DNA of 64,000 nucleotides, from IMG/VR virus record IMGVR_UViG_3300027971_004105, one strand, 5' to 3'. How positions within the stretch are numbered: position 1 is the stretch's first letter; each line of letters begins with the position of its first letter. Of the stretch, positions 16,390 to 25,720 are shown in pieces. Source of the stretch: a virus. Lineage: Duplodnaviria; Caudoviricetes. The position numbers and the translations under genes are program-made. The notes below the pieces were generated by a model. That model did no database searches. It was not told the origin of the DNA and was given only the letters and a program-made list of their open reading frames with translations.

Positions 16390-16471
16390 TCCATACATAG
16401 ATCCAAAATCTACCCGTGGCACAATAGAATCATCTATTGACAATCATCATTGAATATGTTTAAATACTGAT

Positions 16472-16800
16472 GTAGGCGATGAAGTGATTGTAATAATCAT
16501 ATAGGACTCGGCTCGATGCCGACACCTCCACCAAATTCGCTCACGTAAAACATAATGATGTTATGCTTCACGGGGGTGAAATGTTTCGACTAGTGATGAA
16601 AAGATCATGGAGTTTACCAGTGAGGGCTCTGTAAAGGCTCAAATTTACAAATGCTAACAAGCGTTTCGTATCAGAAGTAACAATTCCTGCTAACTTTTTA
16701 GTTGGCTCGGAATTGATGGCAGCCTAAGAACCTGCAACTTCGGAGAGTGATCACACTTGGCAACAGAACGTGATCAGTGGTGGGAGGCAACTCCCACCAT
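16472..16800 (+). ncRNA. ssrA: Circularly permuted two-piece tmRNA
   Basis: Acceptor piece ending CACCTCC-A-CCA (16533) precedes GGGGGTG (16572) with a G3-U70 pair; pk1 at 16621-16649; tag ORF 16653-16727 ending MAA-stop; TGGCAACAGAA at 16758; terminal GCAA hairpin. Confidence 0.9.
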
Positions 16801-23400: not shown

Positions 23401-23429
23401 TTGACTTTTGCCACAATCATCACTATATT
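23401..23429 (+). promoter_or_regulatory. sigma70-type promoter of hsp20
   Basis: TTGACT-17nt-TATATT. Confidence 0.8.
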
Positions 23430-23435
23430 AACAGT

Positions 23436-23512
23436 TGTCACAATGGTGTGACTCAACTGTATGAATTGCCGCATGGGATTCATACACAAACTCGCTAAAA
23501 AAGGAGAAAACT
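23436..23512 (+). promoter_or_regulatory. ROSE-like RNA thermometer
   Basis: Three hairpins; the last is CUC-G-CU/AAAAA/AG-GAG, pairing the SD with a bulged G (UCGCU motif). Confidence 0.65.
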
Positions 23513-23962
23513 ATGAACAATAGAGCACTAACTATCTTTAATCAACTAAGACCCGTTACAGTGGGCTTTGATAACGTTTTTGATCACTTCGAAAGAATGG
23601 TCAATGACGATTTCTTTAACGTACCTACTGTTAACTATCCACCTTACAATATTGTAAAGACTGGCGTTAATACGTACAATGTTGAAGTGGCTTTGGCAGG
23701 ATTCAACAGAGACGATGTTTCTGTGGAATTTGAGGAAGGGGTAATGACCATCAAATCCAAAGACCGAACAGAGTCTAAGAAACAGGATGCGGATGATAAC
23801 ATTATCCACAAGGGTATTTCCAAAAGATACTTCAGTAAATCATTCACAGTGGCCGATGATGTAGAAATCAAAGGTGCTGAATTAAAAGATGGTTTACTAA
23901 CTGTTTCTATGGAAAGAATCGTTCCAGAAAACAAAAAAGCCAGAGTAATAGAAATACTATAA
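23513..23962 (+). CDS. ibpA: Small heat-shock protein (Hsp20/IbpA family)
   Basis: YPPYNI, ALAGF, HKGISKRYF, AELKDGLL. Confidence 0.95.
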   Translation: MNNRALTIFNQLRPVTVGFDNVFDHFERMVNDDFFNVPTVNYPPYNIVKTGVNTYNVEVALAGFNRDDVSVEFEEGVMTIKSKDRTESKKQDADDNIIHKGISKRYFSKSFTVADDVEIKGAELKDGLLTVSMERIVPENKKARVIEIL

Positions 23963-23970
23963 TACAAATC

Positions 23971-23994
23971 TTAGGGCGTGGCAACACGCCCTAA
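23971..23994 (+). terminator. GCAA-capped stem-loop after hsp20
   Basis: TTAGGGCGTG-GCAA-CACGCCCTAA, 10 bp; no U tract. Confidence 0.6.
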
Positions 23995-24009: not shown

Positions 24010-24312
24010 ATGAGCAAAACCAAAACCGATATAGTCCTAGACGAAAAAGTAGAACAGATAATATTAGAACCAGAAATGGTCAAAGTGATCATGTTGAATG
24101 ATGATGTTACTCCAGTAGACTATGTGGTAGAACTATTGATAAAAATATTCAAACACACTCAAGACAGTGCCAAAGAAATCACACTTAAAATTCACACAGA
24201 AGGCAGCAGTGTGGTGGGTTCCTACAGTTATGAAATAGCTGAACAGAAAACCAAAGAAGCCATAGAAGATGCCAGAAGCAGAGGCTTTCCTCTACAAGTA
24301 AGAATGGAATAA
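24010..24312 (+). CDS. clpS: ClpS N-degron adaptor
   Basis: VIMLNDDVTPVDYV...IHTEG...FPL. Confidence 0.92.
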   Translation: MSKTKTDIVLDEKVEQIILEPEMVKVIMLNDDVTPVDYVVELLIKIFKHTQDSAKEITLKIHTEGSSVVGSYSYEIAEQKTKEAIEDARSRGFPLQVRME

Positions 24313-24314
24313 CA

Positions 24315-24848
24315 ATGAGCCTCAAAGATCTCACTTGGGAACATCATAAGAACGCAGAACGTCAAAAGTTTGTGAAGGTTATGTTTTCAGGCAGCATTGA
24401 TCCCAAATTGTACGCAGAATTTTTATTCAATCAACACATGGCATACGACCTGTTGGAAATGATGGCCATGTCGCACGGCATATTCAATGGAATGGAAGAT
24501 GTGAGAAGAGCTCCTAAAATATTAGCAGATTTCAAAGAACTTTGGCCCAAGGATCAAACATTGCCTGAACCCAAAAACGCAACCAAGACATATTTGGATC
24601 ATTTACTCACAATCAAAGACAACAAGGATGCACTGATGGCTCACGTGTATGTGAGACACATGGGAGATCTGTCAGGTGGACAAATGATACGTAAAAAAGT
24701 TCCAGGTGCTGGCACCATGTTTGATTTTGCAGACAAAGATCAAGCCAAAGAGATTATCCGATCAAGAATAAACGATTCCATGGCAGATGAAGCTAAAAAA
24801 TGTTTTGATTTCGCCACTGGGTTGTTTCAGGACATGCTCAATGACTAA
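24315..24848 (+). CDS. hemO: Heme oxygenase
   Basis: EHHKNAE proximal His; YVRHMGDLSGGQ distal helix. Confidence 0.92.
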   Translation: MSLKDLTWEHHKNAERQKFVKVMFSGSIDPKLYAEFLFNQHMAYDLLEMMAMSHGIFNGMEDVRRAPKILADFKELWPKDQTLPEPKNATKTYLDHLLTIKDNKDALMAHVYVRHMGDLSGGQMIRKKVPGAGTMFDFADKDQAKEIIRSRINDSMADEAKKCFDFATGLFQDMLND

Positions 24849-25023
24849 GAAGAAAAAATTTAAAGATTTTCCAGGCAACTTGATCAAAATAAAAGTATTG
24901 GAAGATGAGATAAGTTATTTTAAAACACAGATTCAAGAACACGACACAGGTCATATCTACACCACCATAGACACATTAAAAGACAGAGTACGAGAGTTAA
25001 AAGGCATCCGAGAAGAATATTAA
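24841..25023 (+). CDS. 60-aa hypothetical protein
   Basis: Overlaps the hemO stop and abuts pcyX. Confidence 0.7.
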   Translation: MTKKKKFKDFPGNLIKIKVLEDEISYFKTQIQEHDTGHIYTTIDTLKDRVRELKGIREEY

Positions 25024-25024
25024 C

Positions 25025-25720
25025 ATGAGTTTCATTTGGGATACCTTGATTGCATGTCAGAATAATATCATCACAGAATTCAATTCACGCGGCAAAGAGA
25101 TTCAAGAACCCGGCATGAGCAGATTCAATCAACCCGAAAATGGTTGGATCAATAGAGTGTGGGAAACTGAACACTGTCGTCGTTGTCACATAGACGTGGT
25201 GGATGCTAGACAAAGCAAAGGTCTTTGGATGATGCATGTGTGTGTATTTCCACATTTGCACAACAATGGTCCTATCTATGGATTCGATGTGATTGCCGGA
25301 GAACACAAAATGACCGGCGCATTTCATGACTTTTCACGCAGCTCAGGTGGTGATCAACATCCACTGATAGAATGGTATCACCAAGCAGTGGCAGAGTTCA
25401 TTCCTTCTAAAAGAAGAAAACTACCAGAGTGGGCACTGAATATATTTTCAGGCAGCATGATTGCCGCAGGCAATGTGCAAACAGACGAAGAAGCCAACAC
25501 CATTGTGAATCTTGCAGTGAACAATCTACAAGTGTATTTTGACAGCATAGGACAATATGCTCACACTGCCAAGGAAGCAGATACCATTGAGGCACAAAAC
25601 TATTATTGTCATAATCAGCAACAGAATCCACACACACCTAGAGTGATGAAAAGTTTAGGTTTGGCAGAAGCAGACGTAGAATTATTTTGCACAGACGCAC
25701 TATTTCCAAAAATAAAATAA
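25025..25720 (+). CDS. pcyX: Ferredoxin-dependent bilin reductase, PcyX type
   Basis: RRCHIDVVD, LWMMHVCVFP, YGFDVIAG, RKLPEWA.NIFS; linked to hemO. Confidence 0.85.
   Translation: MSFIWDTLIACQNNIITEFNSRGKEIQEPGMSRFNQPENGWINRVWETEHCRRCHIDVVDARQSKGLWMMHVCVFPHLHNNGPIYGFDVIAGEHKMTGAFHDFSRSSGGDQHPLIEWYHQAVAEFIPSKRRKLPEWALNIFSGSMIAAGNVQTDEEANTIVNLAVNNLQVYFDSIGQYAHTAKEADTIEAQNYYCHNQQQNPHTPRVMKSLGLAEADVELFCTDALFPKIK

Follow-up and report, generated by a model that had tools for sequence, protein, structure and literature searches.

A ROSE-like leader upstream of hsp20 in a T4-like phage: a candidate translational control element homologous to the ibpA leader of SAR11 bacteria

The hsp20 locus and its leader

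The window, the whole stretch of 64 kb (64,000 nucleotides) analysed here, originates from a T4-like phage. In the phage collection, the hsp20 region matches only the Pelagibacter phages Mosig EXVC030M and HTVC008M, with ~70% nucleotide identity. The segment 23300-24000 is present in ~20 lake-water metatranscriptome assemblies, and the phage is therefore probably a freshwater relative of the SAR11 phages.

The hsp20 gene (Table 1) encodes a protein that shares 32% identity with E. coli IbpA and 55-71% identity with the Pelagibacterales IbpA proteins retrieved in a scan of bacterial genomes. Its upstream neighbour codes for a 2OG-Fe(II) oxygenase. Directly 3' of hsp20, auxiliary genes for a ClpS adaptor, a heme oxygenase and a ferredoxin-dependent bilin reductase are placed in a row (24010-25720, plus strand). 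The window also contains a permuted tmRNA gene of the alphaproteobacterial type (16433-16778, plus strand), scoring 83.1 bits with tmRNA_permuted and 67.9 bits with alpha_tmRNA, both above the gathering threshold. The GC-rich hairpin located just past the hsp20 stop codon is probably a terminator or a stabiliser of the transcript 3' end.

Table 1. Features of the hsp20 locus, in positions of the window.
Feature	Coordinates	Strand	Details
Sigma-70-like promoter	23401..23429	+	TTGACT (23401-23406), 17-nt spacer, TATATT (23424-23429); scan 10/12
HP1, hairpin at the transcript 5' end (GUCACA-AUGG-UGUGAC)	23437..23452	+	In the MFE fold
HP2: outer stem of 10 bp, bulged G23468, C69-G76 and C70-G75, loop GCAU	23458..23486	+	
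HP3, ROSE-type: CUCGCU (23491-23496) paired with AGGAG (23502-23506), loop AAAAA (23497-23501)	23491..23506	+	In the MFE fold
hsp20 (ibpA-type small heat-shock protein), 149 aa	23513..23962	+	Pfam HSP20, E 2.3e-16; AUG at 23513
GC-rich hairpin, 10 bp	23971..23994	.	Stem flagged on the minus strand; plus strand has the same inverted repeat

The leader comprises 77 nt (~23436-23512) and is placed directly 5' of the HSP20-domain ORF. Its minimum-energy structure (RNAfold; -22.4 kcal/mol, z = -2.6) consists of exactly HP1, HP2 and HP3, and 2 of 200 shuffled sequences fold as well as the leader. The preliminary description of this locus had placed a promoter and three hairpins here, the last of them pairing the SD around a bulged G. 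All its coordinates are correct and the computed structure reproduces the hairpins, with UCGCU (23492-23496) opposite AGGA(G) (23502-23506) and G23494 bulged within the anti-SD. HP2 contains an inner feature that was absent from that description: the bulged G23468 is followed by two C-G pairs, a shape as in the SD hairpin.

Transcription would start at ~23436, at the foot of HP1. The promoter scan taken alone does not exceed chance for the region (9 sites versus 5.6 +/- 2.1 expected). In the relatives with three hairpins, CTCTTGA...TATAAT is kept at the same place. Contigs from four lake-water RNA libraries cover hsp20, with left ends inside the leader at 23458 and ~23489; in two libraries a contig stops close to the hairpin located past the stop codon, at 23962 in one case and 24012 in the other. 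These contigs are a weak hint of hsp20 expression, given that the end of a contig does not define the end of a transcript and that an RNA library may include DNA. The variants that they carry sit in the HP3 loop (one A fewer at ~23500; A to C at 23500).

Conservation of the leader in phages and in SAR11 hosts

The phage relatives comprise 80 viral contigs with Hsp20 proteins at 64-72% identity, plus Mosig and HTVC008M. HP2 and HP3 occur in all 52 distinct phage leaders according to an anchored parse that uses no model, which bears out the initial view of a genuine, conserved ROSE-type 5'UTR of phage hsp20. The number of hairpins is three in the window and two or three in its relatives. A homologue of HP1 (UAUCAC...GUGAUA) is found in the three-hairpin subfamily, with some compensatory variants such as UAUUACGC..GUGUAAUA in contig L027, and is absent from the two-hairpin leaders of phages and hosts. 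On a related viral contig, a glutamine riboswitch (L029:2002-2050; 57.5 bits, gathering score 35) is located shortly 3' of hsp20.

The stem of HP2 measures 5-11 bp and varies in sequence from lineage to lineage, whereas the core that closes it, Y-G(bulge)-C-Y ... R-G-G, is invariant. Two-sided compensatory changes affect 7 of its 9 pairs in 43 phage leaders and 8 of 9 when the phage and host leaders are aligned together, and ~99% of the HP2 cells are paired in the model-fitted alignments. The covariation score is 0.46-0.48 (0.477 for phages only) versus 0.19 (0.189) in shuffled alignments, a level that none of 500 shuffles reached, and it drops to 0.03-0.10 when the structure is shifted by 1-3 columns. 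An alignment fitted to a model leans towards the structure of that model; the model-free anchored parse gives the same HP2 pairs. RNAalifold applied to the raw MAFFT alignment recovered just 2 pairs, MAFFT having placed the stems out of register, and the conservation of HP2 and HP3 was instead taken from the anchored parse and the alignments fitted to covariance models.

The phage consensus of HP3 is AAC-U(U/C/UU)-G-CUU, a loop and AAGGAG(G). The conservation of UCGCU in homologues had been set beforehand as a point on which the ROSE assignment could fall; the motif U(U/C)GCU is present in 66/66 distinct relatives, as UUGCU in 58 and as UCGCU in 8. The bulged G opposite the SD is invariant across the alignments. 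An extra U in the anti-SD (CUUU-G) goes with GGAGGU and lengthens the helix (15/15 versus 1/51; Fisher p = 6e-14, not corrected for phylogeny). In the HP3 core, neither the phage nor the combined phage and host alignment contains a two-sided compensatory change, the positions being invariant or changed on one side, from U.G to C-G only. The proposed HP3 pairing would thus rest on the conserved anti-SD, the U/G co-insertion and the analogy with known elements, and it gains support from the strict maintenance of a non-coding anti-SD while the adjacent spacer and the HP2 stems vary freely.

Three covariance models were built for the searches. R1 found every leader with HP3 in a wrong register. 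R2, seeded solely on the three-hairpin subfamily of phage leaders, gave 16 bits to Mosig and HTVC008M and was replaced by R3, a combined phage and host model of 85 sequences, the window among them. R3 yields a single match in the 64 kb of the window (23458-23511; 49.5 bits, E 3e-9, with the window in the training set). One significant match per genome, always at hsp20 or ibpA, is also obtained for Mosig, HTVC008M, one viral contig of 172 kb and two Pelagibacterales genomes. Among 151 alphaproteobacterial genomes sampled, five have matches at E <= 0.01: the reference genome G002, one at 57.6 bits and three at 32-37 bits. The two weaker matches inspected (L174, L175) are both 5' of hsp20-type genes.

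The upstream regions of Pelagibacterales ibpA form the same two hairpins as the phage leaders, and R2, trained on phage leaders only, matches 42/43 Pelagibacterales ibpA leaders directly upstream of the gene. By sequence comparison, the window leader and the SAR11 (Pelagibacterales) ibpA leader are homologues, and the former was most probably acquired together with the hsp20 gene. This homology and the replacement of the promoter were both absent from the preliminary description. The phage proteins group with those of Pelagibacterales in a single supported clade of the protein tree (SH-aLRT 95), outside of which are placed the cyanophage Hsp20 and two other alphaproteobacterial proteins. Some host lineages branch among the phage proteins. 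The tree requires 4 label changes, of which well-supported branches force 1, and it has too few columns for counting phage-host transfers.

Two sequences from metagenome-assembled genomes (MAGs) have a particular position. L098, from a MAG labelled Rickettsiales, has a promoter of the phage type, and its leader is almost the same as that of the viral contig L014; it is consequently probably a phage contig binned into the MAG. L097, from a MAG labelled Gammaproteobacteria, groups with the window protein on a long branch.

The promoters that precede the leader are distributed differently between hosts and phages. A sigma-32-type promoter (TTGAAW-N12-16-xCxAxAT) occurs in 60/69 distinct host regions versus 0/56 distinct phage regions. 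Typically, the host promoter is CTTGAAA-N13-16-CC(C)ATAT, in agreement with the sigma-32 consensus quoted in PMC3669281. The phage regions contain TTGACA, TTGTAA or TTGAAA and then TATAAT-type boxes. In 48/56 of them (L005, L024, L029 and others), ATAAATA, the core of T4-type late promoters, is located at most 28 nt upstream of HP2, overlapping the 3' arm of HP1 in those leaders that have three hairpins. The window has no ATAAATA in the 28 nt before HP2 and no sigma-32-type promoter (CTTGAA-N13-18-CNCCATAT), the latter being a typical context and not a defining feature of a ROSE-like RNA. The comparison of these regions indicates that the phages exchanged the host sigma-32-type promoter for phage-type promoters and retained the leader.

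In Mosig-type relatives (L001:2410-2455; L060, L065, L066, L073), a 13-bp inverted repeat, GGGGGTTGT...ACAATCCCC, spans the promoter (~-18 to -19 kcal/mol). A sigma-32-like CCCCATAT, possibly a remnant of the host promoter, is fused to ATAAATA at the promoter of the Mosig-type relatives.

Relation to known ROSE elements and predicted melting

The ROSE signature consists of U(U/C)GCU opposite AGGA with a bulged G, in leaders of 2-4 hairpins upstream of genes for small heat-shock proteins (PMC3669281). For the two-hairpin ROSE-like leaders of Pseudomonas ibpA, which are transcribed from a sigma-32 promoter, thermometer function has been validated by experiment (Krajewski, Nagel and Narberhaus 2013, PMC3669281): hairpin II melts locally, hairpin I stays folded and the AUG is unpaired (PMC3669281). 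This short thermometer (Rfam ROSE_3, RF02523) is the closest known relative of the phage element. Both occupy the 5'UTR of an ibpA-type gene, leave the AUG unpaired and have a short 3' hairpin formed by imperfect pairing between U(U/C)GCU and the SD. HP2 is shaped like the stable first hairpin of ROSE_3, whose consensus is AUGCC...GGGU and includes an unpaired G, and the SAR11 host version shares with Pseudomonas ibpA a sigma-32-type promoter. On the other hand, the phage element is AT-rich, and its SD/anti-SD core lacks the flanking G-C pairs noted in Pseudomonas. It is also phage-encoded and has the extra HP1 in the window, and its promoter is sigma-70-like in the window and of the late type in relatives instead of the sigma-32 type.

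The preliminary description had proposed a search with RF00435 and related ROSE models, and none of them reaches its gathering score. The best match is ROSE_3, which aligns both hairpins and gives 21.2 bits to the window, 26.4 to a SAR11 host leader and 28.8 to another alphaproteobacterial leader, against a threshold of 43. RF00435 and ROSE_2 do not match the window at E <= 10. No Rfam ROSE model reaches its gathering score at the SAR11 ibpA loci scanned either, where the best value is that same 26.4 bits. A match to the Rfam family freshwater-2 (15 bits, E 7) and other sub-threshold matches look like chance. On paper, the leaders of the phages and of SAR11 would work like the Pseudomonas elements, whose sequence and structural features they have, at scores below the Rfam threshold.

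The classical alphaproteobacterial ROSE (RF00435) and the E. coli ibpA leader (ROSE_2) share with the window the signature and the number of hairpins; the putative thermosensing hairpin of the window differs from theirs in being much shorter and in leaving the AUG outside. With R3, the ibpA and ibpB leaders of E. coli K-12 score 7.9 and 14.2 bits, respectively. The weak match upstream of ibpB (L181:4902-4954, minus strand) reads ACUCGCUU...AAGGAG. The SAR11 ibpA leader, by comparison, has the same HP2 core as the window, the hairpin AACUUGCUU...AAGGAG and the same position before the start codon; it differs in its promoter, CTTGAAA-N13-16-CCCATAT, where the window has TTGACT-N17-TATATT and HP1.

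R3 also matches cyanophage hsp20 leaders directly before the gene (S-PM2 23.4, P-SSM4 25.2 and P-HM1 19.0 bits). As in the window, a small hairpin with a GC(C/U)...(G/A)G core is followed by ACUCGCU...AGGAG. The cyanophage Hsp20 proteins are only ~30-38% identical and fall outside the SAR11/pelagiphage clade, and the first hairpin of their leaders is shorter. Records of hsp20 also exist for phages of Pseudomonas, Agrobacterium and Methylophilales; among phages, the leader comparison covered the relatives of the window and these three cyanophages.

We consider it fairly probable, with moderate confidence, that the 77-nt leader is a ROSE-like translational control element homologous to the SAR11 ibpA leader, most probably brought in with the gene. 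Transcription would proceed from the sigma-70-like promoter and not from a sigma-32-type promoter as in the host. HP1, at the 5' end of the mRNA, would probably protect the transcript, and HP2, a stable covarying hairpin, would probably act as a scaffold. In the cold, the imperfect pairing of the anti-SD CUCGCU with the SD AGGAG around the bulged G23494 would limit the binding of the 30S subunit. Upon warming, the short HP3 stem would open gradually and Hsp20 would be translated. Chaperone synthesis would thus be independent of the host heat-shock sigma factor and still gated post-transcriptionally. The melting of the SD occlusion with heat is proposed by analogy with the ROSE family.

The melting was predicted with the nearest-neighbour model. 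In the window, HP3 stays in the MFE structure from 5 to 50 C, and the predicted dG of the isolated hairpin amounts to -4.5 (15 C) and -2.0 kcal/mol (37 C). The predicted probability that GGAG is unpaired increases gradually, with values of 0.04 (5 C), 0.15 (37 C) and 0.30 (50 C), and over 15-30 C the predicted accessibility of the SD changes only about two-fold. Deletion of G23494 in silico lowers the SD accessibility ~40-fold, from 0.152 to 0.004 at 37 C. The window is among the most occluded phage leaders (rank 3/52 in SD occlusion) and ranks 46 in the stability of the isolated HP3.

The earlier suggestion of a very weak stem that melts at low temperature, to the benefit of a host in cool water, finds no support in these predictions: the hairpin is retained up to 50 C, and the SD of the window ranks high in occlusion. 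The short hairpin is a design common to the family, host ibpA leaders included, and not a special adaptation of this phage.

In most relatives, the predicted unpaired fraction of the SD is ~50-85% over the whole temperature range and varies little within it, which is the chief computational reservation about the thermometer reading. In-silico melting of the 52 phage leaders and the host leaders did not separate phages from hosts and gave no clear thermosensing for most relatives; its use is confined here to the rejection of the very weak stem. ROSE structures contain non-canonical pairs. Either the model misses such pairs, or the occlusion in the relatives may be weak or modest.

Alternative readings and significance

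The reading of the leader as a thermometer is compatible with another one, which is possible and clearly the less probable as a main or additional function: the leader may be an operator of self-repression, at which Hsp20 binds its own 5'UTR and prevents translation until aggregating proteins titrate it. The element would then sense aggregation instead of, or besides, temperature. The precedent is E. coli IbpA, which represses its own translation by binding a ROSE-type 5'UTR; the repression depends on R93, on an aromatic residue at position 34 and on a cation at position 97 (PMC10474464). The same authors report that the IbpAs of alphaproteobacteria conserve R93 and Y34 (PMC10474464). BLASTP, in which the E. 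coli sequence lacked Met1 and the numbering was offset by one, aligns the three residues with R105, Y42 and K109 in the window Hsp20, and among 20 phage Hsp20 proteins R105 is invariant and K109 nearly invariant. This correspondence and the invariance of R105 make self-repression plausible, by analogy; it might be relieved by aggregates, for example while virion proteins are mass-produced. The anti-SD and the HP2 core, conserved beyond what pairing needs, would also fit a protein-binding site. The RNA determinants of IbpA binding are undefined, however, so that no site can be assigned in the leader, and the window Hsp20 has a serine at the equivalent of K98. An operator for RegA, whose gene adjoins hsp20 in S-PM2 and P-HM1, was also considered, and no evidence for it was found.

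It is improbable that the hairpins merely stabilise the mRNA or damp translation constantly, the leader being kept as inherited with the gene and without any sensing. HP1 and HP2 are located at the 5' end, where stem-loops are commonly protective, and the nearly flat predicted SD accessibility of most relatives would suit such a role. Against it, the U(U/C)GCU motif, its bulged G and its pairing with the SD persist in 66/66 distinct relatives in spite of the replaced promoter, the U/G co-insertion included, and a purely stabilising element would not need to pair the SD. Chance structures of an AT-rich intergenic region have a practically negligible probability. The modest z-score of the single sequence and the sub-threshold Rfam match would be compatible with chance, but more than 100 phage and host leaders conserve the leader, with compensatory changes in HP2, and the matches occur once per genome and always 5' of hsp20 or ibpA. 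These comparative data refute chance. The translational control element of the ROSE type remains the reading that we prefer, and it is ROSE-like in a new setting: phage-encoded and with an exchanged promoter.

The RNA thermometers known so far belong mainly to bacterial genes for heat shock and virulence, and few are from phages. One phage RNA thermometer is lambda cIII. The prophage SPbeta carries a fourU thermometer element (PMC10586365). No paper on ROSE-type elements of phage genes or of SAR11 ibpA turned up in the literature search, in line with the initial remark that none was known on phage hsp20. A genome-wide study of non-coding RNA that included a SAR11 genome listed a possible groES thermometer and none for ibpA.

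With the chances evenly balanced, T4-like phages of SAR11-type hosts, and of cyanobacteria as judged from three leaders, may carry on a chaperone gene a functional, host-derived thermometer or aggregation sensor whose promoter was replaced. If so, infected cells would make the phage chaperone upon heat or folding stress without the host heat-shock regulon. Water temperature or proteotoxic stress would thereby be linked to phage gene expression in a testable manner, and the phage-host pair HTVC008M / HTCC1062 is suited to bench testing. A ROSE-like element conserved on hsp20 of abundant aquatic phages, as well as in SAR11, would bring streamlined oligotrophs and the viruses that infect them into the family, and would show that a cis-regulatory RNA is transferred with an auxiliary gene while the promoter changes. 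If the proposal is true, some of the most abundant viruses in water would carry a widespread, undescribed class of virus-encoded RNA sensors.
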